DNA of 64,000 bases from Thermoplasmatota archaeon (GTDB taxonomy: Archaea; Thermoplasmatota; E2; DHVEG-1): contig JALOTN010000004.1 of NCBI GenBank assembly GCA_025457885.1, forward strand, positions 10,875-74,874. The letters are read 5' to 3'. The stretch's first letter is position 1, and each line of letters opens with the position of its first letter. Both the position numbers and the translations under genes were made by a program. Below the pieces are notes generated by a model. It saw nothing but the letters and a program-made list of their open reading frames with translations, was not told the origin of the DNA and searched no databases. Of the stretch, positions 1,878-42,253 are shown in pieces.

Positions 1878-2786
1878 GTGAAGATTGCTTATGTCAGGCA
1901 GATTATAAAATTAGCACGAATGCCGATTGTTCTGGCGGTCATACCTATTTTTCTTGTCGGAATCCTGTTCGCTCTTCGTTCTGGGGCGTCTTTTTCTGGT
2001 GTAAATTTCCTCTGGGGTTTTTGTATCTTATTCATCATTGAGATAGCAGCGTCCTTTTCAAACGATTATTATGACTATGAAGCAGATAAACACAACAGAC
2101 AATTTGGTTTCTCTGGAGGCAGTGGAGTCTTACTCGAATATCCTGAACTCCTTTCATTTGCAAAATGGGCATCAATCATCATGTTTGTTCTTGCCATCCT
2201 TTTAACAGGTCTGTTTATCATTTTCGCATCACTTCCTTTTTGGGTAATCGTATATATCGGCATCGCCGTGTTTTTTTGCTGGTTTTATACAGCACCACCG
2301 CTTCGTCTTGTTTATCGAGGTCTGGGTGAGATCCCTCACCTGCTCGCAGGAATCATGTTCCCTGGATGGGGATATCTTATTATGACCGGAACAATAACCA
2401 CTGATTTGGTCATATTTGCGATTCCCTTCGGTTTCCTTGGTTTAACAGTGATACTCAATTTTGAGATACCTGACATGGAAGCGGATATCCATGGGGGGAA
2501 ACGAAATCTCATCGTGATGAAAGGTCGATATTTTTCTTTCCTCACCATTTTTTTGCTGTATCTCATTACTTTTCTTTATTTTTTCATCCTTGCTATCTTT
2601 GGATTATTTGAGGATATCCTGAATCCATGGCTGATTACCTTACTTGCTTTTTTCCCCTTATGTATATCTTTTATCTCCATTATAAAAAAGTCAATTCAAA
2701 AAGATGTCGCAACAAAATATGCTATACGAAATGCGATAGCTGGCTTTCTTGCATCGTTTCTCATTATGGCATCTCTTTTATTTTAA
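1878..2786 (+). CDS. UbiA-family polyprenyltransferase (integral membrane)
   Basis: 302 aa, multi-TM. First Asp-rich motif NDYYDYEADKHN (NDxxDxxxD) and second motif EIPDMEAD (DxxxD) are typical of UbiA/MenA/lycopene-elongase prenyltransferases. Lies near the carotenoid genes. Confidence 0.7.
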   Translation: MKIAYVRQIIKLARMPIVLAVIPIFLVGILFALRSGASFSGVNFLWGFCILFIIEIAASFSNDYYDYEADKHNRQFGFSGGSGVLLEYPELLSFAKWASIIMFVLAILLTGLFIIFASLPFWVIVYIGIAVFFCWFYTAPPLRLVYRGLGEIPHLLAGIMFPGWGYLIMTGTITTDLVIFAIPFGFLGLTVILNFEIPDMEADIHGGKRNLIVMKGRYFSFLTIFLLYLITFLYFFILAIFGLFEDILNPWLITLLAFFPLCISFISIIKKSIQKDVATKYAIRNAIAGFLASFLIMASLLF

Positions 2787-2937
2787 CTGAAAACCTTGAG
2801 ATATTGATTGTTTACCACATTTTTAGGGAATCGATATAAATATCTTTGGTAAAATTTATTTAAAGAGCTCTTCTATTTCTAAAATATGGGAGTTACCTCC
2901 TAAACGAGAATCATCTAAATTAAAGGGGAGAAAAAGC

Positions 2938-3756
2938 ATGAAAAAAAGAAATGCAATAGTCTTAGCAATACTGCTGGTATTTTCAAACTTCGTCGTTGTC
3001 GGAGCAGCGATATCTGATCAATTAAAAGATAATACCATTAAACAGAAACATGAGAATCAACCATGGTCAACACTCCAATCAGACGATGACATTACGATTT
3101 CCTTTTCAAAAGCCCCACTGTCCTTAGGAATAAATATCGAAATACAAAACAACAGAAATGTGACCTATCAAGACGTACCATGGAGTTTTCGGGCAAAACC
3201 ACAGATCTCTGGAACAGGACTTGTTTACAAAGACCAAATACGGTCTGGAGTTATCGATCAACTTGAGGCCAATGCACTTGTGACTATTCCATTACGACCA
3301 TTGAAGGGGCAAACTTCGAGTCCTTTTGGGCTTGGGCTGTTCTATTTTAATGCCTCGGTCAGCACGTCAGATACCTTCTTTCGCTCTTCACAACTCTGCT
3401 GGCTGGTGCTCTTTTTCATGGTGAATCTGAAACCAACCTACATGGATATACCACCTGCAGAAGCATACAGCTTATATGAGAATGGGACCTTTGACCTCAT
3501 CATTGATGTGGTCGGTCTGAATATCTATAGCCTTGGTCATCTCCCTGGCGCTGTAAATTACGTCTGGGCTGATGGGACATTAAATGAAACGATTCCTACT
3601 CTTGACAAAAACCTCACCTATCTTGTCTACTGTCACACCGATCCACCTTCCACCGCCAGCGCTCAGGCATTGGTCAATGCAGGGTTTCCCTCCGTCTATC
3701 GATTGGAAGGCAATTATCGAGCATGGGTTGATGCAGGCTACCCTACAGAAACCTAA
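2938..3756 (+). CDS. Secreted protein with C-terminal rhodanese-like domain
   Basis: 272 aa, N-terminal signal peptide. C-terminal region FDLIIDVV...GHLPGAVNY...LVYCHTD...RAWVDAGYP matches the rhodanese fold with its active-site Cys loop. Confidence 0.55.
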   Translation: MKKRNAIVLAILLVFSNFVVVGAAISDQLKDNTIKQKHENQPWSTLQSDDDITISFSKAPLSLGINIEIQNNRNVTYQDVPWSFRAKPQISGTGLVYKDQIRSGVIDQLEANALVTIPLRPLKGQTSSPFGLGLFYFNASVSTSDTFFRSSQLCWLVLFFMVNLKPTYMDIPPAEAYSLYENGTFDLIIDVVGLNIYSLGHLPGAVNYVWADGTLNETIPTLDKNLTYLVYCHTDPPSTASAQALVNAGFPSVYRLEGNYRAWVDAGYPTET

Positions 3757-3845
3757 ACACGTCTTCCTTATTCGCTTCATTAAGCACCGTAACAAATAAA
3801 GTCACATAATCTTCTTAAACCACTGTAATATACGACTAACAAGGT

Positions 3846-4595
3846 TTGAAAGGCGGGAGACATATGGTCATAAACTATCTTATCTTAGATATCCTAATCA
3901 TCTTATTTCCGTTCTTACTTTCATTTAAGTGGAAGTTCGCCTATTATCGATACTACAAGGCATTGTTTCCAGCAATCGCCATCGTCGGAGCAGGTTACAT
4001 TTTCTGGGATGCGATTGTGACTGCAAGAGGAGACTGGTGGTTCAACTATGAGTATCTTTCTGAAATCACCATCATCGGATTACCTCTGGAGGAGATTTTA
4101 TTCTTCATTGTTGTCCCCTATTCCTGTATATTCATCTATGAGAACCTTGAGTATTTCTTTCCAGATAAAAAAACAAGATTCAGCAAGATCTTCTATGTTG
4201 TTTTGATCATATTATTCGTTCTCGGTGGACTTGCGTTCTATCACCAGGATTATACAATCCTTGCTCTGATGTCGTGTGCGTTTTTTTTACTCATCGCGCT
4301 TTGGCGTTTCCCAGACATCCTGCAATCACGGAACTACTGGCTCTACATCGGCATATCTATGATTCCCTTCATAATCTTCAATTACCTGCTCACCTCCACG
4401 CCCATCGTATTGTATAACCCTGCGGCCATCTGGGGTGGTGATGGGGCGTGGAACGGCCGGTTCTTCACTATACCACTCGAAGACTTCTTCTATAATTTCT
4501 CGATGCTATCGTTTTATCTGCTTGTTTACCGGTATTTCAGGAAACGATGGATTCAACCATCTACATCAAAACAAGGATTAAAGGATCACAAATGA
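3846..4595 (+). CDS. crtY: Lycopene cyclase domain protein (fused CrtYc/CrtYd-type)
   Basis: 249 aa polytopic membrane protein. It has two copies of the conserved PxE(E/D) motif of heterodimeric-type lycopene cyclases (GLPLEEILFF and TIPLEDFFY). Located beside crtI/crtB. Confidence 0.6.
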   Translation: MKGGRHMVINYLILDILIILFPFLLSFKWKFAYYRYYKALFPAIAIVGAGYIFWDAIVTARGDWWFNYEYLSEITIIGLPLEEILFFIVVPYSCIFIYENLEYFFPDKKTRFSKIFYVVLIILFVLGGLAFYHQDYTILALMSCAFFLLIALWRFPDILQSRNYWLYIGISMIPFIIFNYLLTSTPIVLYNPAAIWGGDGAWNGRFFTIPLEDFFYNFSMLSFYLLVYRYFRKRWIQPSTSKQGLKDHK

Positions 4596-4608
4596 GTGAT
4601 TCAATGGT

Positions 4609-5124
4609 GTGACCACCATGGATTTTTTTGGAGTGATTCTGGATGGATCTTCGGATCCTTTGCTTTTCGGGATTTTCTTTTTCGTCTATGTCGTGCTCAA
4701 TACCCTTGCCCTGCCTTTCCCAGTGGAACTGGGATTATTCAACCCTGCTTTTCATCCCTTGTTCTTGATAGGTATCCTTGCCGTGGGGCGAGGTGTTGGA
4801 GCGTTTTGTGTTTTTGAAATTGGAGGATTTATCAGAAAAAAGACAAGCACGTGGTCTGTAGGTGCATTCCGGTTACGAAAAACAATCAGCTCTCTTGAGC
4901 GGTTTATCCAACAGTATGGATATTATGCCTTGTTCCTCCTTATGAGCATCCCACTCATGCTGGATTCAGTGGTGCTGTATCTCTTTTCTCTTCTCAATAA
5001 ACGAAAGGATACCAAGGTAGCCCTTGCCCGGCGATGGTTTATCGGTATCACCATTGCAGCAAGTATCCTGCGTGGCACCATCATTCTTTTGGTTGCTGAA
5101 TTTGTAAAAATAATCCTGATATGA
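4609..5124 (+). CDS. Small polytopic membrane protein, unknown function
   Basis: 171 aa, 4-5 predicted TM helices, same strand and tightly spaced after crtY. No recognisable motif. Confidence 0.35.
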   Translation: MTTMDFFGVILDGSSDPLLFGIFFFVYVVLNTLALPFPVELGLFNPAFHPLFLIGILAVGRGVGAFCVFEIGGFIRKKTSTWSVGAFRLRKTISSLERFIQQYGYYALFLLMSIPLMLDSVVLYLFSLLNKRKDTKVALARRWFIGITIAASILRGTIILLVAEFVKIILI

Positions 5125-5183
5125 TATATTTAGTAATACAATAGGTATTACCTCTGGTATCACTTCTGGAGGAACATGTCATC

Positions 5184-6548
5184 ATGGTCTATCGTTCACC
5201 CTGGATCGTCCAATTAAAACGGTCCCGACCTATCCAAAAAGCACACTCCTTGCTCCACCCCGATTGTGTAGTTGTCGGTGGTGGTATCGCTGGGGTTGTC
5301 ACCGCATATTTTATTCTTCGACAGACATCTCATACTATCCTTCTCCTCGAGGCCGATCGTGTCGCCCATGGTGCGACTGGTCATAACGCAGGACAAGTAG
5401 TCAGCTACTTTGAGCGTCCTCTTCATGATATCGCCAGTCAGTTTGGGGCGCCTCTCACCTTAGATGCTTATCATCATCTTCAGGAGACCTGGGGTGTCTT
5501 GGATGATATTATCACCACAGCACACCTAAGGACGCCAGTCACAACATTCACTGGGTACGCTGGATACAGCACGTATCACCAACTTTTGAACCAATTAAAG
5601 ACTCTCCACCTGCTGCGCGATTCAAAAACAACACCAGAAAATCTCCTTCTCCTAAAAGAATCAGACCTTCATGGTAAGATCCCCTCCCTGTATCACCCTT
5701 ACATCAGCCTCATAAAACACCAGGAGTTATTACAACTTCTTGGTACGGGAAATTCACAGTATATCGCTGCTTTTCCCGAAAAAAAAGGATGTACCAACTC
5801 AAGTCTTCTGACCGAAGAACTCGTTGGGTATCTCCTCAGTACCTACCCTGAACGGTTTCATCTTTCAGAGCTTACACCTGTGAAAAGAATTTTGGTCACT
5901 CCAACACAAATTACACTTTCGACACCAGATCAGATCATCAAGACCCCTAGTCTGATTCTCTGCACCAATGGGTATACAACGTATCAGATTGATGCAGAAC
6001 CACTTAAACCGGTTCTCCAAAGATTTCATATTACTTCGACAGTCGGTTACATGAATGGATACCTAGATACTACCCTAAAACCACCGACCGCGACCCAATA
6101 CTTCACAACCCAAAACATCTCTCCAATCGATCCTTATTATTATCTCACGCGACGCATCTATGAACATGGAAGACATGCACATACATTGTTATGCATCGGT
6201 GGACCAGAACATCACTTACCGCAGGATCAACCTTATTCCCCTCATGCACAGTATCTTCCGAACGCACATCATGAAATCGACGCCTTCATTCATACAACCA
6301 GCAGCTATCCTCTTATCAAAACAACACCAGATTTTAAATGGCATGGTCTGATGGGCTATACCCCCACGATGATACGTCTGATCGGACCAGACCCACACTA
6401 TCCCAACCTCTCCTATAATCTTGGTTGCAATGGAGTCGGGATTTTACCATCTATCTATGCGGGAAAACGACTCGGTAACTATCTGGCTGGACGCTCCTTG
6501 AAACCATCTATATTTGATACAAAATTCATGAATAACAAAGAATTTTAA
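5184..6548 (+). CDS. FAD-dependent oxidoreductase (DAO-like)
   Basis: 454 aa. N-terminal dinucleotide-binding motif VVVGGGIAGVVTAYFIL (GxGxxG). Sits between crtY and crtI. Confidence 0.55.
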   Translation: MVYRSPWIVQLKRSRPIQKAHSLLHPDCVVVGGGIAGVVTAYFILRQTSHTILLLEADRVAHGATGHNAGQVVSYFERPLHDIASQFGAPLTLDAYHHLQETWGVLDDIITTAHLRTPVTTFTGYAGYSTYHQLLNQLKTLHLLRDSKTTPENLLLLKESDLHGKIPSLYHPYISLIKHQELLQLLGTGNSQYIAAFPEKKGCTNSSLLTEELVGYLLSTYPERFHLSELTPVKRILVTPTQITLSTPDQIIKTPSLILCTNGYTTYQIDAEPLKPVLQRFHITSTVGYMNGYLDTTLKPPTATQYFTTQNISPIDPYYYLTRRIYEHGRHAHTLLCIGGPEHHLPQDQPYSPHAQYLPNAHHEIDAFIHTTSSYPLIKTTPDFKWHGLMGYTPTMIRLIGPDPHYPNLSYNLGCNGVGILPSIYAGKRLGNYLAGRSLKPSIFDTKFMNNKEF

Positions 6549-6625
6549 TAGAAAATAAATATACTCCTGGAACAAAACTTTCTTTAATATCAAAACTATC
6601 CCTAAAATACGTAACGTGAAACACT

Positions 6626-8092
6626 ATGAAGAAAATAATTATAATCGGTGCAGGTTTTGGAGGAATAGCCGCAGCAGCCCTCCTGGCAAGAGATGGACAT
6701 GATGTCACTGTCGTAGAAAAAAACGATCAACCCGGAGGACGAGCCATCGTCTGGAACGAAAAAGGGTTCGTCTTCGACATGGGGCCATCCTGGTACCTCA
6801 TGCCTGATGTTTTCGAACAGTTCTTTGCTCTCTTTAACAAAAAACCAGAAGACTATTATAAACTCATTCGACTCAACCCAGCCTACCGGGTGTTCTTCGA
6901 TAAAGATGAAATCGTCGATATCTCGCCAGACCTTGAGAAGAACCTTCAACTCTTCGAACGATATCAAAAAGGAGGCCGGGAGCAATTAAAAAAATATCTC
7001 CAGGCTGCAGAATATCAATATACAATAGCAATGAAAGAGTTCATCTACAAGGAATATCGTCATCTCTGGGATTTCTTCAGCCTCCGTCTGTTGTTAAAAG
7101 GTAGTAAACTGCATATCTTCACCAGTCTTGACCGCTATGCGCAACGATACATCACCGATCAGAAATTACGGAAGATCCTTGAATACACCATGGTGTTCCT
7201 TGGAGGCACCCCCTTTGACACCCCTGCTTTATACTCCTTGATGTCCCATGTCGATTTCAACCTGGGCGTCTGGTACCCCGATGGTGGATTTGGAGCTCTT
7301 GCGAGAGGTTTTCAACGCCTCGCGGTTGAACAAGGCGTGAAATTCGAATTCAACACAGAAGTAGAAAAAATAATCGTGAAAAACGGGTCGGTCACTGGTG
7401 TGAAAACTTCTAAAGGAGAGACGTCTGCTGATCTGATCATAGCCAACGCAGATTATCCCTATGTTGAAATGAATCTACTCGAACCAACCTATCAAACCTA
7501 TCCAAAGGAATACTGGGAAAAGAAAGCCATTGCTCCCTCTGCCCTGCTCATGTACCTCGGGGTAAAAGGAAAAATCAAATCTTTTGCGCATCATAACCTA
7601 TATTTTGCCACTGACTGGGAGAAACATTTCCAGACAATATTCCATGAACCCAGCTGGCCAGAAAACCCAAGCTACTACGTCAGCTGTCCCTCAAAATCAG
7701 ATGCCACGGTCGCACCAGCAGATGATGAAAACCTCTTCATCCTGGTTCCGGTTGCTGCTGGATTAGAAGATACACCCCAGGTTAGAGAACGATATTTCAA
7801 CCAAATCATAAATCATTTGGAACTACTCACCGGGGAAAACATCAAGGACCGCATTATTGTCAAACGATTATTCGCCCATAAGGATTTCACCCAGTACTAT
7901 CATGCATACAAAGGGACCGCTCTTGGTCTAGCACATACATTGGGGCAAACCGCTATCTTCCGATGCTCCCATCAGAGTAAAAAAGTCAAAGGACTGTATT
8001 ACACCGGCCATTACACACATCCTGGCATCGGAGTTCCCATGGTAGTGATTTCCTCACAAATCATTGCTGAACAGCTTAGGAGCTCTCCATGA
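6626..8092 (+). CDS. crtI: Phytoene desaturase (CrtI family)
   Basis: 488 aa. N-terminal MKKIIIIGAGFGGIAAAALLARDGHDVTVVEKNDQPGGRA is the canonical CrtI FAD-binding start. Length and C-terminal region are typical. Overlaps crtB by 4 bp. Confidence 0.85.
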   Translation: MKKIIIIGAGFGGIAAAALLARDGHDVTVVEKNDQPGGRAIVWNEKGFVFDMGPSWYLMPDVFEQFFALFNKKPEDYYKLIRLNPAYRVFFDKDEIVDISPDLEKNLQLFERYQKGGREQLKKYLQAAEYQYTIAMKEFIYKEYRHLWDFFSLRLLLKGSKLHIFTSLDRYAQRYITDQKLRKILEYTMVFLGGTPFDTPALYSLMSHVDFNLGVWYPDGGFGALARGFQRLAVEQGVKFEFNTEVEKIIVKNGSVTGVKTSKGETSADLIIANADYPYVEMNLLEPTYQTYPKEYWEKKAIAPSALLMYLGVKGKIKSFAHHNLYFATDWEKHFQTIFHEPSWPENPSYYVSCPSKSDATVAPADDENLFILVPVAAGLEDTPQVRERYFNQIINHLELLTGENIKDRIIVKRLFAHKDFTQYYHAYKGTALGLAHTLGQTAIFRCSHQSKKVKGLYYTGHYTHPGIGVPMVVISSQIIAEQLRSSP

Positions 8093-8982
8093 TTATTGAT
8101 AAGACATTCTTCTCCATCTTCAGAAAAGGAAGCAGGACCTACTTCTACAGCAGCCTGTTCTTCCCCATGCATATCCGTCAGGAGGTCTTCATCCTCTACG
8201 GGTTCGTCCGGAAAACAGACAATTACGTCGACGTCACCCCACAGGACCGTGAAGGTTTTTATTCCTTTAAAAAGAAATATTACGAAGCAAAGAACGGAAA
8301 GGAAACCGGGGATGTCGTCATCGACTCCTTCGTCCGCTTAGCGGAACGGAAAGGATTTCACGATGAATGGGTAGACGCGTTCCTGCATTCCATGGAACTA
8401 GACATCACCAAAACCAAGTACGAGACCCTTGAGGAAGCCTTAGAATATATTTATGGATCTGCTGAGGTCATCGGCTTGATGATGGCACGCATCATCGGTC
8501 TTTCAAAAGAATCCTACGAGTATGCGAAATACCTCGGGCGGGCGATGCAATACATCAACTTCATAAGAGACATCGCAGAGGACCTCAAACTCGGTAGAGT
8601 CTATTTCCCGCAAGTCGATTTACGAAAACACGGGCTGGAGAACCTCACCTATGATCATGTAAAAGACCATCCGGAACAATTCAAACGGTTCCTGCAGACC
8701 CAGCTTGATCATTATTGTCAATGGCAAGAAAAAGCAGAGGAAGGTTATCACTACATCCCAAAACGCTACCTCATCTCTATAAAAACCGCCTCTGAGATGT
8801 ACAACTGGACCGCTGAACAAATCGCCCATCACCCCTTCATCGTTTACGACCTCAAAGTCAAACCGATGATCTCAAAGATACTTCTCACCGTTTTTTCAAA
8901 CCTTATCAACACCATGGGAAAGAAATTCAGCACCAACTTCTGTCATGAAGTCCTACACGAACAACCTCCTCCATCAAAGTAG
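8089..8982 (+). CDS. crtB: Phytoene/squalene synthase family (CrtB)
   Basis: 297 aa. Trans-isoprenyl diphosphate synthase head-to-head family features (YFYSSLFFP, Asp-rich regions, RDIAEDL...GRVYFP). Translationally coupled to crtI. Confidence 0.8.
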   Translation: MIIDKTFFSIFRKGSRTYFYSSLFFPMHIRQEVFILYGFVRKTDNYVDVTPQDREGFYSFKKKYYEAKNGKETGDVVIDSFVRLAERKGFHDEWVDAFLHSMELDITKTKYETLEEALEYIYGSAEVIGLMMARIIGLSKESYEYAKYLGRAMQYINFIRDIAEDLKLGRVYFPQVDLRKHGLENLTYDHVKDHPEQFKRFLQTQLDHYCQWQEKAEEGYHYIPKRYLISIKTASEMYNWTAEQIAHHPFIVYDLKVKPMISKILLTVFSNLINTMGKKFSTNFCHEVLHEQPPPSK

Positions 8983-8987
8983 CTCCT

Positions 8988-9968
8988 ATGAAATCCTTCA
9001 TCAAACCTCGAATCGTTATCAGCAAATGCATTGAATTTGACTTCTGCCGCTACAACAGCCAAATCATCCGCAGCCCAATCGTTAGCACCCTCAAACCCTA
9101 TGTCGAGTTCCAGCCCATCTGCCCTGAAGTAGAAATCCAACTAGGGGTACCAAGAGACCCTATCCGCATCATCGAACAACATACCAACAAAAAGTTAGTA
9201 CAACCAACAACCGGTAGAGATGTCACCGATGCGATGCAAACATTCACCCAGCACTTCCTTGCCTCACTTCAAGGAATTGACGGTTTTTTATTAAAATCAC
9301 AGTCTCCCTCCTGTGGGACGCGAGATGTGAAAATCTATCCAGCGGTCCTCCATTCTGCACCAGTACGCAGGGAAGCAGGATTCTTCGGAGAACAAGTCCT
9401 CCAACGGTTCCCCCATCTTGCCATCGAAGATGAGATGCGACTCCAGAACCCCGTCATCCGACAACACTATCTCACAAAGATATTCACCTTCGCCGCCTTC
9501 CGATCGGTCAAAGACAAAGCATCACTCCAACGGTTATTACAGTTTCACACAGAAAACAAATACCTCCTCATGGGATATAGTCAAAAAGAACTCCGCATCC
9601 TAGGCAATATCCTTGCGAACCAAGAGAAACAACCACTTCCCAAGATGTTCACCGAGTATGAACACCATCTGCATCTAGCGTTTCTTAAGGCACCACGATA
9701 CACCTCCCAGATAAATGTACTGAACCATACCTTTGGATACATCTCAAAAGAGCTCTCCGCTGCAGAAAAAAGGTTTTATGCAGACCTCCTCGAAAAATAC
9801 AAAAATGGACAGATTCCACTCAGCGTCCCAGTCAACCTCATACGCTCCTGGGTCATCCGATTCGAACAAAGCTATCTCTTACCTCAGACCTTTTTCGAAC
9901 CCTACCCTAATCAACTCCTGGACATAGAAGCGATAAAAGCAAGCGAGGTGAGGGATTTCTGGAAGTAA
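8988..9968 (+). CDS. DUF523/DUF1722 (YbgA/TudS-like) protein
   Basis: 326 aa. N-terminal Cys-containing DUF523-like region (ISKCIEFDFCRYN...PICPEV) plus C-terminal DUF1722-like region. ybgA homologs are classically linked to photolyase genes. Confidence 0.55.
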   Translation: MKSFIKPRIVISKCIEFDFCRYNSQIIRSPIVSTLKPYVEFQPICPEVEIQLGVPRDPIRIIEQHTNKKLVQPTTGRDVTDAMQTFTQHFLASLQGIDGFLLKSQSPSCGTRDVKIYPAVLHSAPVRREAGFFGEQVLQRFPHLAIEDEMRLQNPVIRQHYLTKIFTFAAFRSVKDKASLQRLLQFHTENKYLLMGYSQKELRILGNILANQEKQPLPKMFTEYEHHLHLAFLKAPRYTSQINVLNHTFGYISKELSAAEKRFYADLLEKYKNGQIPLSVPVNLIRSWVIRFEQSYLLPQTFFEPYPNQLLDIEAIKASEVRDFWK

Positions 9969-10057
9969 AAAAAACAGATGAACAGAATAACACGACAGAA
10001 CCATCACAGGATCTCCGTCGTCTCATCCACACCCTCCTGTCCAGCCAGCATTTCGCT

Positions 10058-10453
10058 GTGATTGCGACAGAGTCACATCATCACCCCTACACCAGCCTCG
10101 TTTCATTTGTCCCTTCATCGGACGATACTCATCTTTATTTCCCAACAAAAAAAGAGACACAGAAATTTTTTAATATATCAAAAAACCCGCATATCGCTGC
10201 CCTCATCGATAATCGAGAGAACACCCCCGGTGATTTCTCGAAGGCTACCACGGTCATTGCATTAGGAGTTGCCTCTGCAGTAGAGACGAACAAAGAACAT
10301 ATTAGGGAACTTCTCCTCCAAAAACACCCTGATTTATCTGATTTCATCTCTCATCCAGACTGTGCGCTTATCGACATCACCATAACGACCTATCAGATTG
10401 TACAACAATTCGAAAAAGTAAAGATCCTGCGTCTGAGAGATGTACCAGAATGA
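10058..10453 (+). CDS. Pyridoxamine 5'-phosphate oxidase-like FMN-binding split-barrel protein
   Basis: 131 aa as annotated (GTG start). The in-frame upstream peptide RRLIHTLLSSQHFAV resembles the usual N-terminus of this family, so the true start is probably upstream or non-canonical. Overlaps the photolyase start by 4 bp. Confidence 0.45.
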   Translation: MIATESHHHPYTSLVSFVPSSDDTHLYFPTKKETQKFFNISKNPHIAALIDNRENTPGDFSKATTVIALGVASAVETNKEHIRELLLQKHPDLSDFISHPDCALIDITITTYQIVQQFEKVKILRLRDVPE

Positions 10454-11787
10454 TTCAGCAGGAACGCATCCAGCAGCTCAATTCTCATTCCATCGGCTCA
10501 GGAGATTATGTACTCTACTGGATGCAAGCATCACAACGAATTCTAGATAATCATGCGTTACAATACGCGATACAGAAAGCCAATGAATACCAGAAACACC
10601 TCGTAGTTTTTTTTGGTTTGACACCTTCTTTTCCCGAGGCGAACCAAAGACATTACACTTTCATGCTTGAAGGTCTCAAAGAAACACAACAATCGCTTGA
10701 AAAACAAGGTATCACTTTTATCATTCAACCAATCTCACCAGAACAAGGAATCAAGAGACTCGCAACAGATGCATTACTCCTTGTCGTCGATAGAGGGTAC
10801 CTGCGTATTCAACGACAATGGAGACAGATAGTAGCCCAGCAGGTGCGTTGTCCACTACTCCAAGTTGAGACGGATGTCATCGTCCCCATTGATGTTGTGT
10901 CACAGAAAGAAGAATATGCGGCTGCAACCATCAGACCAAAGATACTGAAAAACCTAGAAAAGTTCCTGGTCCCCATCGAACCAGAACCACTTCAAAAAAC
11001 CTGTACGATGCATCATTTCGACTCACTTGACCTTTCGGACATACCCCGTCTTATAACGAACCTTCAAATCGATTCAACCGTGAAACCATCCGCACTATTT
11101 CATGGGGGGACGTCTGCTGCATTGCGATTCCTCCGTCGATTCATCACCCAGAAACTACCATGTTTTTCTGAGTTAAGAAATGACCCGAGCAAAGAATTTT
11201 GTTCCTATCTTAGCCCGTATCTTCATTTCGGTCAAATCTCCCCCTTAACGATCGCATTGAAAATTCGTGCAACAAAGGACCCCAACACTGACGCATTCCT
11301 CGAAGAACTCATCGTGCGAAGGGAGCTGAGTATGAACTATGTATACTTCAACAAAGACTATGATTCCTTCGCTGGTTTACCCTCATGGGCGAAGACAACG
11401 CTTCTCAACCATGTAAAAGACCCTCGACCGTATCTTTATACCGAAGAGGAACTTGAGACTGCAAAGACTCATGACCCGTTCTGGAACGCGGCTCAACGAG
11501 AAATGACACAGACAGGGAAGCTGCAAGGATATATGCGGATGTATTGGGGGAAGAAAATCATTGAATGGACTTCATCACCACAGGAAGCTTTTCAACTGGC
11601 TCTCCGGTTGAATAACAAATATGAACTGGATGGAAGAGACCCCAATGGATTCGCTGGTGTCGCCTGGTGCTTTGGGAAGCACGACCGAGCATGGAAGGAA
11701 CGACCGGTCTTCGGGAAAGTCCGTTACATGAATGACGCGGGTCTGACAAGGAAATTTGATATGACATCCTATATCAGGAACTTATAA
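10450..11787 (+). CDS. phr: Class II CPD deoxyribodipyrimidine photolyase
   Basis: 445 aa. YVLYWMQASQRILDNHALQYAI near the N-terminus and the C-terminal FAD-binding region (GYMRMYWGKK, W-rich) match class II photolyases of archaea/metazoa. Confidence 0.85.
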   Translation: MIQQERIQQLNSHSIGSGDYVLYWMQASQRILDNHALQYAIQKANEYQKHLVVFFGLTPSFPEANQRHYTFMLEGLKETQQSLEKQGITFIIQPISPEQGIKRLATDALLLVVDRGYLRIQRQWRQIVAQQVRCPLLQVETDVIVPIDVVSQKEEYAAATIRPKILKNLEKFLVPIEPEPLQKTCTMHHFDSLDLSDIPRLITNLQIDSTVKPSALFHGGTSAALRFLRRFITQKLPCFSELRNDPSKEFCSYLSPYLHFGQISPLTIALKIRATKDPNTDAFLEELIVRRELSMNYVYFNKDYDSFAGLPSWAKTTLLNHVKDPRPYLYTEEELETAKTHDPFWNAAQREMTQTGKLQGYMRMYWGKKIIEWTSSPQEAFQLALRLNNKYELDGRDPNGFAGVAWCFGKHDRAWKERPVFGKVRYMNDAGLTRKFDMTSYIRNL

Positions 11788-11819: not shown

Positions 11820-12461
11820 TTATGGCACATGCAGTTCTTTGTCATGACGTATTAATGGAGTGTTGATTAAGGCTCTGAGGAAATCTATCGGGGGAAACTG
11901 TTCTTTATACCCAAGGACTGCGACATAGTCCCCTCCTTTCTGGTAGGGGTCCCAATAATAGACGGAATACGTCCCTGTAATGTTGATCGTCTCATCGAAC
12001 CGTGGGCCTTGATAGTATGATTTTCCACCAAATAGCTCATAGAACTGATCCCGTGGGCTCCCCGGTGGAGCATCTGCTTTTATGATCACGCCACACCCCT
12101 CAGGGATCTCAAATGGTAGGGTCTGATTGGGTGGGGGGAGTCCAGGACCAACCAAGGCAAACCACGGAGTGAAATTCGCATAGAACCCATCACAGACCGG
12201 GACAATAACCTCAAGGAAAATCTGTAATGGCTTGTCTTGTATATTGAACTGGTATACATCGATGTCTGTTGCTGGATTTACCCAGTCGGTCTCCAACCAG
12301 GAATACACTGCGATTGATTGGGTGATTGATCTTCTCACCTTGAATGGTTCTTCAATGGTCGAATCCCGACGTTCCAGATAAGGAACGTGAGCAAGAACGG
12401 TCGGCATAAAAAATAAGAAGCTGCTTATGATTACAAAGATAAACAAGCGTAACCTTTTCAT
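11820..12461 (-). CDS. Secreted hypothetical protein
   Basis: 213 aa with N-terminal signal peptide (MKRLRLFIFVIISSFLFFMPTVLA). No recognisable domain. Confidence 0.4.
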   Translation of the reverse strand: MKRLRLFIFVIISSFLFFMPTVLAHVPYLERRDSTIEEPFKVRRSITQSIAVYSWLETDWVNPATDIDVYQFNIQDKPLQIFLEVIVPVCDGFYANFTPWFALVGPGLPPPNQTLPFEIPEGCGVIIKADAPPGSPRDQFYELFGGKSYYQGPRFDETINITGTYSVYYWDPYQKGGDYVAVLGYKEQFPPIDFLRALINTPLIRHDKELHVP

Positions 12462-12550: not shown

Positions 12551-13507
12551 ATGATTTCATTGTATCAAAAACGTGGGGAGAATGTATCCATGTCTGATAT
12601 GAAAATCATGTGTCCGAAATGCCGCCATCAGTTCAATACCACAGGTGCACCAAACGAAAAAATCTATGTCACCTGTCCCTCCTGTAAGACCTATGGGACG
12701 TTTCTGGTCCCAGCAGGAGCCTGCGACCCGAAGAAAGTGGAATGTTTCACAGATATAGGAGATACCCGTTTTCGGAAATTACGGATTTTTAATGCCGTGA
12801 TGGGTGTCATCCATATGATTCAGGGGATCCTTATGCTTATTCTGAGTAATTCTTTTACCTTACCTCTTTGGTACACACGCCCAGAGTATAACGCGGTCAC
12901 CAACACGATTTCACCTGTTTCAGTGGAATTTTTGAAGCTTCCAATTGGACCACTTGTCGCCTTGTTCCTCTTCATGTCGGCAACAGCACACATCCTCCTT
13001 TCCACGGTGCTGTACAAATGGTATGTGAACAATCTGAAGAATCATATCAATCCTGCCCGTTGGTATGAATACTCTTTAAGTGCGTCCCTTATGATTTTCC
13101 TTATTGCCATGTTGGTCACGATTTATGATTTTGGAACGTTACTTGCGCTATTCACCTTGACAGCCGTGATGAACCTTATGGGGTTAATGATGGAGCTTCA
13201 TAATCAGACGACGACAAAGACGAAATGGACGTCGTTTAACATCGGATGCCTCGCAGGATTCATCCCTTGGGTTGTGATCTTCATCCCTCTGGTGATGGCG
13301 TCATCAGTCCCGGATTTTGTCATTGCGATTTTTATTACGATCGCGGTGTTCTTCAACCTCTTCGCCATCAACATGTTCCTTCAGTACAAGCGAATTTGGA
13401 AATGGAAGGATTACCTCTATGGTGAGCGGATGTATATCGTCCTCAGTCTGGTTGCTAAATCTGCTCTCGCCTGGCAGGTGTTCGCCGGAACCCTTCGACC
13501 AATGTAA
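12551..13507 (+). CDS. Heliorhodopsin with N-terminal zinc-ribbon domain
   Basis: 318 aa. Residues ~75-318 align closely with heliorhodopsin 48C12: FNAVMGVIHMIQGILMLILSN, WYEYSLSASLMIFLIA, GCLAGFIPWVVIFIPL, and the TM7 retinal-lysine motif YIVLSLVAKSALAWQVFAGTL, which is near-identical. The N-terminal ~60 aa carries CPKC...CPSC (C4 zinc ribbon). Confidence 0.85.
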   Translation: MISLYQKRGENVSMSDMKIMCPKCRHQFNTTGAPNEKIYVTCPSCKTYGTFLVPAGACDPKKVECFTDIGDTRFRKLRIFNAVMGVIHMIQGILMLILSNSFTLPLWYTRPEYNAVTNTISPVSVEFLKLPIGPLVALFLFMSATAHILLSTVLYKWYVNNLKNHINPARWYEYSLSASLMIFLIAMLVTIYDFGTLLALFTLTAVMNLMGLMMELHNQTTTKTKWTSFNIGCLAGFIPWVVIFIPLVMASSVPDFVIAIFITIAVFFNLFAINMFLQYKRIWKWKDYLYGERMYIVLSLVAKSALAWQVFAGTLRPM

Positions 13508-13567
13508 GACAAACCATCCTCATCCATTCTTCAGAGTAATGAGTAAAACCCCGGAGAATCAGTACCA

Positions 13568-14209
13568 ATGAGCAGCGGCGCGGGTAACCCAGGTATAATA
13601 GATGTCCCCTATTTCCAGCAGACGCGGACCGCAACCTGTGGTCCTGCGTGTCTGATGATGGTGATGAACTATTGGGATTCTTCTTTTGATTTATCAAGGA
13701 AGATGGAATTCCGACTTTGGACACAGAGTTACTCATTGTTTTTACTTGGTGGAACATTTCAATATGAGTTGGCATCCACCGCCGCAGCTTATGGTTTTCA
13801 CCCGGAGATTTCTCAAAAGACAGGATTCTCCACAGAATACCCACGATTCCCACAACTTGCGACACTGATTGAAAACATGGTCTCTTACAAGGCGCGTCGT
13901 ATGAACATCCCTATCCATTATGGATCTGAGAATATTACAGTGATCCGTAAAGCGCTTTCTGAGAACATCCCACCGATTGTTTTTATCAATCTGTTGCCTC
14001 TTCTTGGTGAGAATGTCCTCCATTGGGTCGTTGTCACTGGACTAGATGAACAGTTGGTTCATATAAACGATCCATACATCCCTAAAGGTTTTTTAGGGAA
14101 ACAAAAGAAAAACCATCCTGTTCCAAGAGACGTTTTTTTAAAAGCGATGGAAACACAAACCGGTCGTATCTACCGACTCCCACCATGTGTCGTCCTCATT
14201 AAACCATAG
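13568..14209 (+). CDS. Peptidase C39-like (papain-fold cysteine peptidase) domain protein
   Basis: 213 aa, apparently cytoplasmic. Catalytic Cys context QQTRTATCGPACLMMVMNYW, downstream His (LHWVVVTGLD) and Asp (INDPY) are consistent with a C39-like triad. Confidence 0.5.
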   Translation: MSSGAGNPGIIDVPYFQQTRTATCGPACLMMVMNYWDSSFDLSRKMEFRLWTQSYSLFLLGGTFQYELASTAAAYGFHPEISQKTGFSTEYPRFPQLATLIENMVSYKARRMNIPIHYGSENITVIRKALSENIPPIVFINLLPLLGENVLHWVVVTGLDEQLVHINDPYIPKGFLGKQKKNHPVPRDVFLKAMETQTGRIYRLPPCVVLIKP

Positions 14210-14274
14210 AAACACAATTGGGGTTTTCTTTTGAAACGAACCTTTAAATGACCCTAATGTTTTGATGATTCATC

Positions 14275-15564
14275 ATGCGGATTCTTATCACGGATGAAAT
14301 GAGCCTTAGTACGGTCTTTACTCCTTTTGATCGTTCGTTTCTCTATTCGTTTTCATTTATTCCAACTGTGATTACTGCACGACAGTTGGCTGCGGTGACA
14401 CCCTCAGCCCATCTAGTGACAATCCAAGAAGGAAACCGACCTATCGATTATGATGCATCCTATGATGTGGTACATATAAATTTCAAAACCGCGCTTGCTC
14501 CCCGGGCGTATGAGGTTGCTGATGCGTTCCGGAAGAGAGGAAATCGTGTCATCCTCAGTGGGTATCATCCCTCTGCTCTGCCTGATGAGGCGATGCAACA
14601 TGCGGATGGAATCATAATTGGTGATGCTATCACCCTCTGGCCGGTCGTGGTAAGAGACCTTGAAAATAATACACTCCGACCTCTGTACACCTCTGCTGAT
14701 ACCCCTGAGACACTAATTCTTCCCTCGACATCTTCTGTTACACTGAAGAGTCTTCAATTGACCAATTCCATTGAGGCGACTCGTGGTTGTCCCCATAAAT
14801 GTGATTTCTGTCAGGATTCAAATATTCGAGATGGATCTATGTTTCGCACCCGGTCTCTTGATGATGTCATTGAAGAGGTCGCCTCCCTTCAGCAAAAAGT
14901 ATTTTTCTTCACTGATTTTTCGTTGACTATCGATTTAGCGTATACGAAAGAGTTGTTTCGTTGTCTACGACCGTTGAAAAAGAAGTTTATCTGCGGCGGG
15001 AACATTGATGTTCTTGGTGAAGATGAAGAGCTGCTTCGATTGTCTCATGAGGCTGGATGCATTGAATGGATCAGTGGTTTTGAAACGTTTTCCCAGGAAT
15101 CACTTGATGGTGCGCATAAAAAATCAAACATCGTGGATGACTATACAAGGGCTGTGAAGAATATCCATAAACACAGGATGGCTGTGTTTGGAACATTCGT
15201 CCTTGGTTTTGATGAAGACACCCCCGATATCTTTCAGACGATGCAAACCCACATTGGGAGGCTTGGGATTGATGCAGTAAATTTTGCTCTTCTCACACCC
15301 TACCCAGGGACTCCCTTGTTCTCGCGGTTAGAAAAAGAGGGACGAATACTCACGAAGGATTGGTCATTATATAATCGGAAGAATGTTGTATTTGCACCAA
15401 AGAACATAACAAAAAAAGAACTGGAGGAAGGATTTCGAACCATCACCCGATCGTTTAGTTCCCTTCCTTCGATGGGATATCGAACCGTCCGAAGTCTAAG
15501 TCTAGGAGTGTATCCCTGTCTAGCAACCTTTGCTGGAAACCTCGGACAATATATGAAAACGTGA
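14275..15564 (+). CDS. B12-binding domain-containing radical SAM enzyme
   Basis: 429 aa. N-terminal Rossmann-like cobalamin-binding region, then radical SAM CxxxCxxC (ATRGCPHKCDFCQDS). C-terminal region typical of the class B family. Confidence 0.75.
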   Translation: MRILITDEMSLSTVFTPFDRSFLYSFSFIPTVITARQLAAVTPSAHLVTIQEGNRPIDYDASYDVVHINFKTALAPRAYEVADAFRKRGNRVILSGYHPSALPDEAMQHADGIIIGDAITLWPVVVRDLENNTLRPLYTSADTPETLILPSTSSVTLKSLQLTNSIEATRGCPHKCDFCQDSNIRDGSMFRTRSLDDVIEEVASLQQKVFFFTDFSLTIDLAYTKELFRCLRPLKKKFICGGNIDVLGEDEELLRLSHEAGCIEWISGFETFSQESLDGAHKKSNIVDDYTRAVKNIHKHRMAVFGTFVLGFDEDTPDIFQTMQTHIGRLGIDAVNFALLTPYPGTPLFSRLEKEGRILTKDWSLYNRKNVVFAPKNITKKELEEGFRTITRSFSSLPSMGYRTVRSLSLGVYPCLATFAGNLGQYMKT

Positions 15565-15583
15565 TCTGAGTGCATAAAAGTCG

Positions 15584-15605
15584 TTTTTTTTTTTTTTTTT
15601 TTTTT
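15584..15605 (+). terminator. 22-nt poly(T) tract 20 nt past the radical SAM stop; putative oligo-T archaeal terminator
   Basis: Uninterrupted T22 at 15584-15605 between convergent genes. Archaeal terminators are oligo-T runs. Confidence 0.45.
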
Positions 15606-15731: not shown

Positions 15732-16700
15732 TTAGGCGATATGACACACATTCGACCCTTCATCGGTGCATATCTGAAGGGTACATTCGATGATATTGTA
15801 TTTCTTCAAAAGATAATCATTTATTTTTGAAATGGCGTCCTCTTGTGTACCCTGGATTTTATTTGACTCAAGCTGCATATGAGCAGAAAACACAAGCATA
15901 TCCGGAGTGATTGACCAGAGATGGACATTATGGAGGTCTCGTATTTCCGGGAAATTCTTTTTCAGATCCTCCGAAATCATAGCGATGTTCAAACCCTTCG
16001 GTGCTGTCTCCAAGAGAATCCTTGTGGAATCTTTTAATACACCCCATGCCCAAAACACGATGATAATGGAAATACCAATACTGACAATTGGATCAATGAA
16101 GATCCAGTTCGTAAACATGATAATTAGAGCTGCGATGACGATACCAACTGATGAGATTGCATCAGCGAACATATGATAAAACACCCCACGGATATTCAAA
16201 TCCTTCTGGTGAGCTCCTCGTAGGATAAGGATGCTTAGGATGTTCACCGTTAAACCGATACATGCGATAAGGAGCATTTCCGTACCAAGAATTTCAATGG
16301 GATGGATGAACCGTAAAACAGCTTCGTAAATGATGATTCCTACGACAACCAGTAGAAATAATCCATTCACAAACGCAGCAAGGACCTCTGCCCTGTACAA
16401 CCCGAATGTTTGATGATGACAGGGTGGTTTCCGTGCGATGAGGATAGCTGCAAGTCCGATAATTAAGGCGAACGCATGGGTAAACATATGCCCTGCGTCA
16501 CTGAACAACGCCATGCTGTTTGTCAGATACCCCCCGATAAACTCTAGGACCATAGCGATAATTGTAATTGACAGAGAAATCATGAGTTTCTTCTGTTCAA
16601 CATGCCGATATTCAAAGAGATGCTCTGCATCGGGAGAACTTTTCTTGTCATCCTTCATAGGTTTTGTCGACTCTTTTCCACTGATACTCCTTGTTTGCAA
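15732..16700 (-). CDS. Cation diffusion facilitator (CDF) family divalent metal efflux transporter
   Basis: 322 aa, 6 TM + cytoplasmic C-terminal domain. CDF signature FSDAGHMFTHAFALIIGL (HxxxD) and a second HD pair in TM5. Confidence 0.8.
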   Translation of the reverse strand: MQTRSISGKESTKPMKDDKKSSPDAEHLFEYRHVEQKKLMISLSITIIAMVLEFIGGYLTNSMALFSDAGHMFTHAFALIIGLAAILIARKPPCHHQTFGLYRAEVLAAFVNGLFLLVVVGIIIYEAVLRFIHPIEILGTEMLLIACIGLTVNILSILILRGAHQKDLNIRGVFYHMFADAISSVGIVIAALIIMFTNWIFIDPIVSIGISIIIVFWAWGVLKDSTRILLETAPKGLNIAMISEDLKKNFPEIRDLHNVHLWSITPDMLVFSAHMQLESNKIQGTQEDAISKINDYLLKKYNIIECTLQICTDEGSNVCHIA

Positions 16701-16728: not shown

Positions 16729-18588
16729 TCATATCTCTTGTGGGGGAACAATCGGTAAGGTAAACCGGAAGGTACTACCTTTCCCCAATTCACTGTCTAC
16801 CCATATCTTCCCACCATGGGAAAGGACCACACCTTGCGCTATCGTAAAACCAAGTCCTTCAATCCCTGTGTCAATCTGGTAGAGGATGTCAAAAATCTTT
16901 TTCTGTTTGTTCTTTGGGATGCCTTGACCAAAGTCCTGCACTTCAAAGATGATATCATCGCGTTCTTTATTGACTTTCACAGAGATATTTGATCCTTCCG
17001 GGGAGACGTTGATGGCGTTCTGCAGGAGGTTTACAAGGACCTGTCTGATGCGTTCCTGATCAATCATCATCTCCGGGAGGTCCTCATCGATTTCTTTCAT
17101 GATTTGAATTTGTTTATCTTCTGCTGCGTTTTGTATTGCACCAGTCGCAGTGTGTATCAACCTCTGGATGTCTGTTTTTTCTGGGATGAATTTCATTGTT
17201 CCTGACTCTAGATGAGAGACATCGACGGTGTCCTGGATGAGTTGGTCTAATCGATCGGTGTTTGTGAGGATCACCTCAAGACCCTTTCGTTGTTCTTCTG
17301 TGATGGGGCCAAGGCTTTTCATGAGCAGTATCTCGACGTATCCTTTGATGGTCGCCATGGATGTTCGTAACTCATGAGAGGTGACGCTTAGGAAATTTGA
17401 TTTGATATGATCTAGTTTTTTTAATCGAGTGTTTTGTTGTTCGATTTTCTTTTGTGCTTTCTGCAGTTTCTCCAGCTGGACATGGAGTTCTCCGATGGTG
17501 CGTTTGTATTCATTGGTGTGTTTTTTCAGCATCTGGTTTTCTTTAGCGAGGTCTACGGTGCGCTCCTGGACTTTTTTATCTAACCAGAAATGGGCTTTAT
17601 GAAGCTCCTCTTCGATTTTTTTCCGACCTGTGACATCTTCCATGGTGGAATACACTGAAAGCGTGCCACCGGTCTCATTGAAGCTGAGAAAATCATGAAT
17701 GATGAAGACGCGTGGTTCACCATTCTTGGTAATGTAGGTCCGTTCATGGCCTCCCGCGTAAGGTTTTTTGTTGTTGATTTTTTCTTTGAAGGAGGCTTTT
17801 GCGGCTTCTTGTTCGTCACCGTGGATGTACTCAAAGATTGAGTTTCCAATGACTTCAGTTTTTGTGTAGCCAAACAGGTTGCACCATTTTTCATTGACAT
17901 CCGTAATCGTCCCATCGGACGCAAGGGTATGGTAGGGGACGGGTGCTTTTTCGTAGAGTTGTTTGAATTTTTCTTCGGAGGCTCGTAGGGCGTGTTCCAT
18001 TTGTTTGTTCTGTGTATTGTCTTTGATAATGCCAATTGAGCCAATCACGTTGTTGATACGGTCTTTGAGGACGCTAAGGGAGATGTCGACGTCGATGAAG
18101 GTGTTATCCTTTCTAATCATCTGGGTTTCCATATGGTGTTGGATGCCTTTCTGTCTGATGTTTTCGGAGCGGATTTTCTTCCATTCCTCTGGTGGGTAGA
18201 GGTATTTAACGGGTCGCATTATGAGTTCTTCTCGGGTCAGTCCGAGGAGTCGTTCGGTGTATTTGTTCCAATGAACAATCCGTTCATTCTCATCAGTCAG
18301 CATGATGGCGACCGCGGAGTTGTCAAAGATGATTCGGTATTTTTGGCTTGGGTCTCCCAGGTCAATGGTTCTGATGTCCTCCTCCTTACGGTGTCGGAGG
18401 ATGGTGAATATCGAATCCAGTGGCTCTTCCTCAAGTTCCCTGGGGATGACGATCGTATGTTTTCCTGGGGTGTGGGCTCGTAGTTTTCCCATGCGTTCTT
18501 CTTGTCGTAAGGTCTGGATGATCTCCGGGTCTTCTTTTTTCATGGTTTTCCTCCTGGATTCTTTCCTCTTTTTCTTTTTAACACTCAC
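16729..18588 (-). CDS. Cytoplasmic PAS-domain sensor histidine kinase
   Basis: 619 aa. Lys-rich N-terminus, two PAS-like regions, a coiled coil, H-box SHELRTSMATIKGY, and HATPase_c N/G boxes (NLLQNAINV, QDFGQGIP, GLGFTIA). No adjacent response regulator. Confidence 0.8.
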   Translation of the reverse strand: MSVKKKKRKESRRKTMKKEDPEIIQTLRQEERMGKLRAHTPGKHTIVIPRELEEEPLDSIFTILRHRKEEDIRTIDLGDPSQKYRIIFDNSAVAIMLTDENERIVHWNKYTERLLGLTREELIMRPVKYLYPPEEWKKIRSENIRQKGIQHHMETQMIRKDNTFIDVDISLSVLKDRINNVIGSIGIIKDNTQNKQMEHALRASEEKFKQLYEKAPVPYHTLASDGTITDVNEKWCNLFGYTKTEVIGNSIFEYIHGDEQEAAKASFKEKINNKKPYAGGHERTYITKNGEPRVFIIHDFLSFNETGGTLSVYSTMEDVTGRKKIEEELHKAHFWLDKKVQERTVDLAKENQMLKKHTNEYKRTIGELHVQLEKLQKAQKKIEQQNTRLKKLDHIKSNFLSVTSHELRTSMATIKGYVEILLMKSLGPITEEQRKGLEVILTNTDRLDQLIQDTVDVSHLESGTMKFIPEKTDIQRLIHTATGAIQNAAEDKQIQIMKEIDEDLPEMMIDQERIRQVLVNLLQNAINVSPEGSNISVKVNKERDDIIFEVQDFGQGIPKNKQKKIFDILYQIDTGIEGLGFTIAQGVVLSHGGKIWVDSELGKGSTFRFTLPIVPPQEI

Positions 18589-26352: not shown

Positions 26353-26471
26353 CATCAACAGATACACACCCCTACCGACATCCAGAAACCCACTTCAGAA
26401 GCCTCCTTCAGAAACTATATATATTATATAAGACAACTTTTATATAAAAAACGCGGAGTTTCTGCATACAC

Positions 26472-27707: not shown

Positions 27708-27841
27708 CCATCAGATGAAAAAAACACGAGTTTAAAAATTTAAATAAATATAATCTATATAATTTTATATAAAAAAACATTCATAGAAAACTACAAATAT
27801 AACGACATAAATAGCACTATAAGATACGATGCGAGGGAGCC

Positions 27842-41293: not shown

Positions 41294-41296
41294 GGT

Positions 41297-41845: not shown

Positions 41846-41848
41846 TCT

Positions 41849-42250: not shown

Positions 42251-42253
42251 CCT

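Follow-up and report, generated by a model that had tools for sequence, protein, structure and literature searches.

A DUF3335/C39-like peptidase and a class-B-type radical SAM enzyme as a predicted two-gene unit next to a zinc-ribbon heliorhodopsin in Thermoplasmatota

We analyzed a 64-kb stretch of DNA (the window) from a Thermoplasmatota metagenome-assembled genome, in which three genes on one strand encode a zinc-ribbon heliorhodopsin (Znf-HeR), a DUF3335/C39-like cysteine peptidase and a radical S-adenosylmethionine (SAM) enzyme. A preliminary description of this DNA had taken the three as a putative operon ending at a run of 22 thymines (T22), and had suggested either that the heliorhodopsin (HeR) controls the enzymes or that the radical SAM enzyme acts on lipids or carotenoids. 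Our comparison of about 100 related loci points instead to two independent modules lying side by side, one of them a peptidase–radical SAM pair that would modify and cleave a peptide or protein substrate encoded elsewhere, and we give this reading about an even chance of being correct. The function of heliorhodopsin has been open since 2018 and any real effector would matter; we set the peptidase and radical SAM "operon" aside as a poorly supported effector, and consider an orphan protein designated hyp213 and a ribbon-bearing ABC-2 (ATP-binding cassette) exporter, both described below, to be better-supported leads. The pair itself offers a compact two-gene target, without accessory genes, through which novel radical SAM chemistry could be discovered in uncultured Thermoplasmatota, as well as a route to a first function for DUF3335.

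Conservation of the pair and of the heliorhodopsin junction

Two sets of loci were collected, 80 from a genome-wide scan anchored on the peptidase and 80 from a metagenome scan anchored on the heliorhodopsin, and both were annotated by tblastn with the window proteins. Domain calls used the curated cut-offs of Pfam and NCBIfam. In 16 of the 17 evaluable Thermoplasmatota genome loci the peptidase gene directly adjoins the radical SAM gene; it comes first where peptidase identity is at least 54%, and the order is inverted at 44–53% identity (L013–L017). The complete MAG chromosomes CP070798.1 and CP070836.1 are among the sequences with the pair. Three more diverged metagenome contigs, fetched through radical SAM homologues, carry the pair in either order, with flanks that encode ribosomal proteins, MCM, Rad51/PolB or ABCE1. 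When all neighboring open reading frames (ORFs) were clustered, nothing else traveled with the pair. Adjacency that survives inversion, turnover of the flanks and divergence to 44–50% identity marks the two genes as a genuine functional pair, a self-contained two-gene unit whose enzymes are predicted to be cytoplasmic. Three same-strand genes with short spacers are by themselves no more than chance would produce; the conserved peptidase–radical SAM adjacency exceeds chance.

Two individual loci are recorded here for completeness. In L010 (10710–11997) the radical SAM gene is seemingly split by a frameshift, giving two overlapping tblastn segments. A few kb upstream of its pair, the diverged locus L161 (394–3414) also encodes a Peptidase_C39_2 protein of 464 residues together with a LuxE-type acyl-protein synthetase and a transglutaminase-core protein, an arrangement not seen in other loci.

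The link to heliorhodopsin is far shallower than the pair. A heliorhodopsin gene lies upstream in six of the 17 evaluable pair-bearing genome loci (L001–L004, L006 and L010) and is absent from the other 11, and the order heliorhodopsin then peptidase occurs only in one shallow clade, in which the radical SAM enzymes are at least 76% identical. Among heliorhodopsins at least 77% identical in the metagenome scan, the peptidase gene follows 64 nucleotides (nt) downstream in 10 loci. At five others (L086, L088, L090, L092 and L104) the heliorhodopsin gene abuts a convergent CDF cation-efflux gene, with neither the peptidase nor the radical SAM gene present, and L093 also lacks the peptidase. L002 (10001–11471) retains the heliorhodopsin and peptidase genes with no radical SAM gene, and its CDF gene lies 47 nt past the peptidase gene. 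At heliorhodopsin identities of 51–75%, the pair was found in none of about 57 loci. Loci that have heliorhodopsin are intermixed with loci that lack it in the radical SAM tree, where L004 groups with L007/L008 and L001 with L005 as sisters; likewise, in the heliorhodopsin tree the CDF-abutting loci interleave with those bearing the peptidase. Together, the presence patterns and the interleaved trees indicate two cassettes that are independently present or absent at one site to the left of the CDF and PAS-kinase genes, and we read the position of heliorhodopsin next to the pair as synteny passed down in a single shallow clade. The three-gene operon of the preliminary description therefore survives only in part: the adjacency of the two enzyme genes holds, whereas the heliorhodopsin link is broken repeatedly and the full gene order is not conserved in distant genomes. 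The same counts speak against its proposal of a heliorhodopsin-controlled module.

The ORFs, the spacers of 60 and 65 nt and the T22 run that had been reported were all recovered (Table 1). Scans for sigma-70 promoters and hairpin terminators, which are not applicable to archaea, gave counts equal to the shuffled expectation, and in their place we inspected the spacers side by side across loci. The heliorhodopsin–peptidase spacer is fixed at 63–64 nt across all 16 such junctions. In 13 of the 16, a T-run with a TATA-like element, GTGTTTTTTAAAACAC or ATTTAAAAAC, lies about 20 nt before the peptidase ATG. This element has been lost in the window, L081 and L083, which have GGAG 11 nt before the ATG instead, and the window spacer contains neither a T-run nor a good TATA box. 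Given this loss and the presence of GGAG, the peptidase may be co-transcribed with heliorhodopsin, and only in the sub-lineage formed by these three loci.

The spacer before the radical SAM gene has a different character. All 13 close relatives have a TTTAAAT(G) box 22–26 nt upstream of the radical SAM start codon, and the window has TTTAAATG 24 nt before the ATG. The remainder of this spacer diverges freely among relatives, and T-runs just past the peptidase stop codon precede the box. The archaeal TATA box is centered about 26–27 nt upstream of the transcription start site, and so the position of the conserved box fits a dedicated promoter and a leaderless radical SAM mRNA. We infer that the radical SAM gene is transcribed from a promoter of its own as a leaderless message, with the T-run after the peptidase gene as a putative terminator. 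Internal signals of this kind, before the radical SAM gene in the window and before the peptidase gene in most relatives, run counter to a single three-gene operon.

T22 is the longest homopolymer of the window, where the runner-up is 11. Its counterpart is T8 in L081, in which the radical SAM gene is 99% identical, and T5–T8 in other relatives. We rejected T22 as a conserved regulatory element because it is specific to the window genome. Past its T8, L081 continues into an Ig-domain gene that is absent from the window, and the T22 tract may mark a deletion junction. A near-identical motif of about 26 nt, AACTTAACAATCGTTAAATTTATATA, occurs about 60–110 nt after the radical SAM stop codon in L004, L005, L007, L008, L070, L081 and L087. 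In these seven loci it precedes an Ig-domain (Big_7) surface-protein gene downstream of the radical SAM gene, and both motif and gene are absent from the window. The motif probably serves as a promoter or operator that is under strong conservation.

The two enzymes of the pair

Pfam and NCBIfam bear out the identities that had been assigned to all three genes. Database records from a Candidatus Thermoplasmatota MAG include exact copies of the peptidase and of the radical SAM enzyme. The peptidase scores 99.2 bits against PF11814 (DUF3335; E = 3e-28, cut-off 25), 50.5 bits against PF13529 (Peptidase_C39_2) and 35 bits against PF03412 (Peptidase_C39). Catalytic residues Q18, C24, H152 and D168 are invariant across 19 peptidase homologues, which upholds the Cys, His and Asp named earlier, and inspection of the N-terminus revealed no hydrophobic segment, in agreement with the reported lack of an export signal. 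We predict that the protein is a stand-alone cytoplasmic papain-fold cysteine hydrolase of the C39 clan. Among proteins of solved structure, the LahT-type double-glycine leader protease domain 6mpz matches it best (profile match, E = 4e-5), and ComA is a weak match. The C39 domains of PCAT/AMS ABC transporters, such as LahT and ComA, have the papain fold and the Q/C/H/D residues in common with the window peptidase. They differ from it in that the window protein has an insert larger by about 60 residues and is neither fused to nor beside an ABC exporter. Linkage to an ABC exporter and a double-glycine precursor, the marks of C39 in the strict sense, were both sought and neither was found conserved around the pair.

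In organisms other than Thermoplasmatota, DUF3335 typically makes up the C-terminal half of a GNAT fusion of about 375 residues. A RimK-like (RLAN) ATP-grasp ligase is encoded beside bacterial DUF3335 in 36 of 62 loci, and a related radical SAM gene was found near DUF3335 in none of the 62 non-Thermoplasmatota loci. Some of these clusters (Zixibacteria and Ignavibacteria) also contain an ornithine/diaminopimelate (Orn/DAP)-decarboxylase-like gene and a second ATP-grasp gene. The bacterial GNAT-DUF3335 and the archaeal protein share PF11814, about 30% identity, the same catalytic residues and a cytoplasmic location, and each is paired with one substrate-modifying enzyme. However, the archaeal protein has no GNAT domain and no ATP-grasp neighbor, and it is paired with a radical SAM enzyme where the bacterial partner is an ATP-grasp ligase. 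The sole publication found to mention DUF3335 (PMC10318531) records the GNAT fusion and gives no function, and our literature search returned nothing on RLAN/ATP-grasp together with papain-like enzymes.

The radical SAM enzyme carries the motif CPHKCDFC (CxxxCxxC; residues 172–179, nt 14788–14811), of which C172, C176 and C179 are invariant, and it scores 51.2 bits against PF04055 (Radical_SAM; E = 2e-13, cut-off 29.5). Beyond this cluster motif, just C240 and C262 are conserved cysteines. Pfam detected no PqqD-like RiPP recognition element (RRE; RiPP, ribosomally synthesized and post-translationally modified peptide) and no SPASM/twitch domain, only Radical_SAM, a weak B12-binding match and a weak DUF4070 match. 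The B12-binding profile (PF02310) gives 17.4 bits in the window protein against a cut-off of 32.1, and the domain is on record for several close homologues. An AlphaFold2 model (mean predicted local distance difference test score 90.8) has an N-terminal Rossmann (B12-like) domain, a radical SAM barrel and a C-terminal helical domain. The best Foldseek match to the model is AprD4, with a template modeling (TM) score of 0.74–0.76, followed by MgmA, and CysS, TsrM, TokK and OxsB are further matches; overall, TM scores are 0.64–0.76 at 12–18% identity. AprD4 is also the closest solved sequence (E = 4e-7). The domain architecture of the window enzyme is common to the cobalamin users MgmA, CysS, TsrM and TokK and to AprD4, a cobalamin-free look-alike. 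From the earlier assignment to B12-binding class B enzymes we can thus retain the class-B fold, whereas the B12 profile is below threshold in the window protein. The model suggests a class-B architecture in an unclassified family, with cobalamin use as a prediction only.

Family placement by NCBIfam was equally nonspecific. All 22 matches lie far below their cut-offs (HpnJ, 95.1 versus 577.6 bits; BchE, 85 versus 481 bits), and no cut-off was reached among the named class-B families HpnJ, BchE, HpnR, MgmA/TIGR04014, ladderane radical SAM, ApyD and PhpK. The enzyme therefore stands outside any named housekeeping family in NCBIfam, a point that the preliminary description had left to be checked. 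The nearest representatives outside the family bear only generic names ("B12-binding domain-containing radical SAM" and "YgiQ"). An exhaustive HMMER search with the radical SAM enzyme retrieved 1,414 cluster representatives at E ≤ 1e-30, with identity grading down from 45%. Paralogues at 34–39% identity include fusions to an MMPL/RND protein with a sterol-sensing domain (P0420, 1210 residues) and to a PLD-like domain (P0458, 671 residues), and fusions to STAS or ferredoxin domains also occur (P0400 and P0444).

Proposed role of the pair and alternatives

We hypothesize that the locus combines two modules. The first would consist of Znf-HeR and hyp213, a light cassette at the end of a carotenoid/photolyase island, and the second, shared by members of a Thermoplasmatota lineage, of the DUF3335 hydrolase and the unclassified class-B-type radical SAM enzyme. 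In the second module, the radical SAM enzyme would carry out a radical modification of a peptide or protein, most plausibly cobalamin-dependent C-methylation or another C–H functionalization, and this substrate would also lose a leader or tag through cleavage of one of its peptide or isopeptide bonds by the hydrolase. We favor a peptide or protein substrate because the hydrolase has C39-clan catalytic machinery with an invariant tetrad and a double-glycine protease as a relative, because bacterial DUF3335 sits beside RimK-type peptide ligases, and because archaeal class-B enzymes such as MgmA, a protein-methylating enzyme and the second-best fold match, modify proteins without linked substrates. 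Peptide maturation by a radical SAM enzyme and a peptidase is known from mycofactocin (MftC/MftE), pyrroloquinoline quinone (PqqE/PqqF) and the proteusins (PoyB/C), and the logic in common would be that a peptide is altered by one radical enzyme and processed by one hydrolase. In contrast to the window locus, where neither was found, the clusters of those systems encode the precursor and usually a PqqD/RRE element.

Several observations weigh against this proposal. Small ORFs within 1.5 kb of the pair were compared in 23 loci, and the conserved ones were all alternative-frame shadows of flanking genes. No Gly-Gly-type ORF was found in that range beyond such shadows, and the spacers around the pair measure 60–110 nt across loci. 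The preliminary description had likewise noticed no convincing precursor, and its thought of RiPP maturation loses ground with no local precursor found. Neither a RiPP-recognition gene nor a transporter or immunity gene is linked to the pair. The best fold match, AprD4, is a small-molecule enzyme that does not use cobalamin, and the B12 score of the window protein is sub-threshold. The MMPL/RND and PLD-like fusions of the paralogues hint at lipid substrates in the wider radical SAM family. The promoter and terminator calls are read from motif conservation, and the fixed heliorhodopsin–peptidase spacer, kept in roughly three quarters of the clade, would fit a degree of coupling particular to this lineage.

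The alternative that survives best is a lipid, carotenoid or small-molecule pathway, in which the radical SAM enzyme would modify an isoprenoid lipid, a carotenoid or an amide metabolite and DUF3335 would serve as an amidase or as an acyl or aminoacyl transferase, with no requirement for heliorhodopsin. We consider this unlikely, though still a serious contender. The nearest NCBIfam profiles (HpnJ at 95 bits, BchE, HpnR and the ladderane-lipid radical SAM enzyme, none of which comes near its cut-off), the P0420 and P0458 fusions, the small-molecule substrate of AprD4 and the lack of a precursor gene near the pair are all consistent with such a pathway. So are the Zixibacteria and Ignavibacteria DUF3335 clusters, whose decarboxylase-like and second ATP-grasp genes resemble metabolite biosynthesis, and the carotenoid cluster beside the pair in the window. 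However, the fusions amount to two of 150 representatives and belong to paralogues outside the orthologous family (at least 44–48% identity), in most lineages the pair has housekeeping genes around it and lipid or carotenoid genes are lacking nearby, and archaeal ether lipids do not present an evident amide or ester bond on which a C39-type hydrolase could act. What is left of the lipid or carotenoid role proposed earlier is the weak hint given by the fused paralogues.

A variant of the two-module reading combines it with partial light control. Here the pair would be a new archaeal peptide or protein maturation system with its substrate elsewhere, comparable to the radical SAM enzymes that modify methyl-coenzyme M reductase, and in the window sub-lineage the peptidase would have been captured into the heliorhodopsin transcript and be partly light-controlled. 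We regard this combination as doubtful.

The weakest reading of the mechanism, and one we judge improbable, is a light-controlled operon in which heliorhodopsin regulates the peptidase, the radical SAM enzyme or both through its cytoplasmic ribbon or through co-transcription. All three genes share a strand and the heliorhodopsin–peptidase spacer is constant in length, and in the window, L081 and L083 the spacer, with GGAG and no T-run/TATA element, is compatible with read-through and coupled translation. There are also precedents for a heliorhodopsin binding a neighboring enzyme, namely glutamine synthetase (PMC9529153) and photolyase (PMC9769723). Against this, the adjacency to heliorhodopsin is limited to one shallow clade, where either side repeatedly occurs without the other, and a conserved TATA-like box of its own, with a T-run upstream, precedes the radical SAM gene. 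Neither enzyme bears the zinc ribbon that an ABC ATPase of a sister clade shares with heliorhodopsin, and the constant neighbor of heliorhodopsin is hyp213 and not the peptidase. Our literature search found no publication linking heliorhodopsin with radical SAM enzymes, or radical SAM enzymes with C39 peptidases in Thermoplasmatota. Finally, it is very improbable that these are three unrelated neighbors whose peptidase–radical SAM adjacency is meaningless inherited synteny, as might be argued from the possibility that each gene has its own promoter and from L002, where the peptidase has no adjacent radical SAM gene, since the adjacency outlasts order inversion, full flank turnover and divergence to 44–50% identity, which neutral synteny normally does not.

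The heliorhodopsin cassette and its surroundings

The heliorhodopsin scores 312.6 bits against PF18761 (E = 2e-93, cut-off 26.7) and 336.4 bits against NF038020 (cut-off 100). Its zinc ribbon, CPKC-17x-CPSC, spans residues 21–45 (nt 12611–12685; CPKC 21–24, CPSC 42–45) and is predicted to bind metal. Relatives align from residue 9–10 onward, and for this reason translation may actually begin at the ATG at 12590. A zinc-ribbon heliorhodopsin in a carotenoid/photolyase island is an already published kind of cassette. Bulzu et al. (2021, mSphere; PMC8612252) described Znf-HeRs from six Thermoplasmatales sequences with the spacing CxxC-17x-CxxC, flanked by lycopene cyclase, phytoene desaturase, phytoene synthase, photolyase or UvdE genes, with a histidine kinase in one contig. 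The window agrees with these in ribbon spacing, in phylum and in its carotenoid, photolyase and histidine-kinase neighborhood, and the present comparison extends the six sequences to about 40 Znf-HeR loci. The main text of PMC8612252 does not mention a C39/DUF3335 neighbor, and the word "radical" occurs in it only within "peroxide radicals". There was no sign in that paper of hyp213 or of a ribbon-bearing ABC ATPase, two items for which its text was not searched. In the window, the carotenoid cluster proper (1878–8982, UbiA to phytoene synthase) is interrupted by genes for a rhodanese-domain and a VTT-domain protein, and none of the window ORFs scanned stood out as a gene for beta-carotene cleavage (retinal formation).

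hyp213 is a candidate for a better heliorhodopsin partner than either the peptidase or the radical SAM enzyme, as it is the constant neighbor of Znf-HeR. It lies within 3 kb of heliorhodopsin in 32 of 33 evaluable Znf-HeR loci, compared with none of 27 loci with a ribbon-less heliorhodopsin, and is placed either divergently upstream or convergently downstream of the Znf-HeR gene. The protein has a signal-like N-terminal helix followed by an invariant AHVPY, a beta-sandwich fold and an invariant ELH near the C-terminus. The family to which it belongs comprises 486 proteins and lacks a Pfam domain.

In a sister clade (L095, L097 and L100), a DrrA-like ABC ATPase gene adjoins the heliorhodopsin gene and is followed by an ABC-2 permease gene, in two gene orders (L097, 8995–10946; L100, 2598–3762, with the ATPase split by a frameshift; L095, 5111–7059). 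The ATPase bears the same N-terminal CxxC-17x-CxxC ribbon as heliorhodopsin, at 44–51% identity. This hints that the shared ribbon could couple heliorhodopsin to the ABC-2 exporter in that clade. No zinc-ribbon module was found in the window peptidase or in the window radical SAM enzyme.

Table 1. Coordinates of the features discussed, numbered from the first letter of the window.
Feature	Position	Strand	Details
Light island: UbiA prenyltransferase, lycopene cyclase, flavin adenine dinucleotide (FAD) oxidoreductase, CrtI-like desaturase, phytoene synthase, DUF523-DUF1722, PNPOx-like, class II photolyase	1878–11787	+	Pfam, NCBIfam
hyp213, orphan secreted or membrane-anchored protein	11820–12461	-	213 residues; divergent from heliorhodopsin
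Zinc-ribbon heliorhodopsin (Znf-HeR)	12551–13507	+	318 residues; PF18761, NF038020
Heliorhodopsin–peptidase spacer	13508–13567	+	60 nt; GGAG at 13553–13556, 11 nt before the peptidase ATG
DUF3335/C39-like cysteine hydrolase	13568–14209	+	213 residues; PF11814, PF13529, PF03412
T4CT4 run (14224–14232), then TATA-like TTTAAATG (14243–14250)	14224–14250	+	in the peptidase–radical SAM spacer; putative terminator and promoter
Class-B-architecture radical SAM enzyme	14275–15564	+	429 residues; Pfam, AlphaFold2, Foldseek
T22 run	15584–15605	+	plausible strong archaeal oligo-T terminator
CDF cation-efflux gene	15732–16700	-	Pfam; convergent; conserved right-hand border of the locus, with the PAS kinase
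PAS histidine kinase	16729–18588	-	Pfam; beside the CDF gene, conserved right-hand border

Scans of the region for tRNAs and Rfam families gave no matches, and PADLOC assigned no membership of a defense system. Elsewhere in the window, GC skew falls to between -0.29 and -0.46 at 26001–30000, where AT skew reaches up to +0.38, and AT skew is steady at about -0.31 to -0.34 at 40001–50000. These anomalies possibly arise from very long one-strand genes or from repetitive surface proteins.

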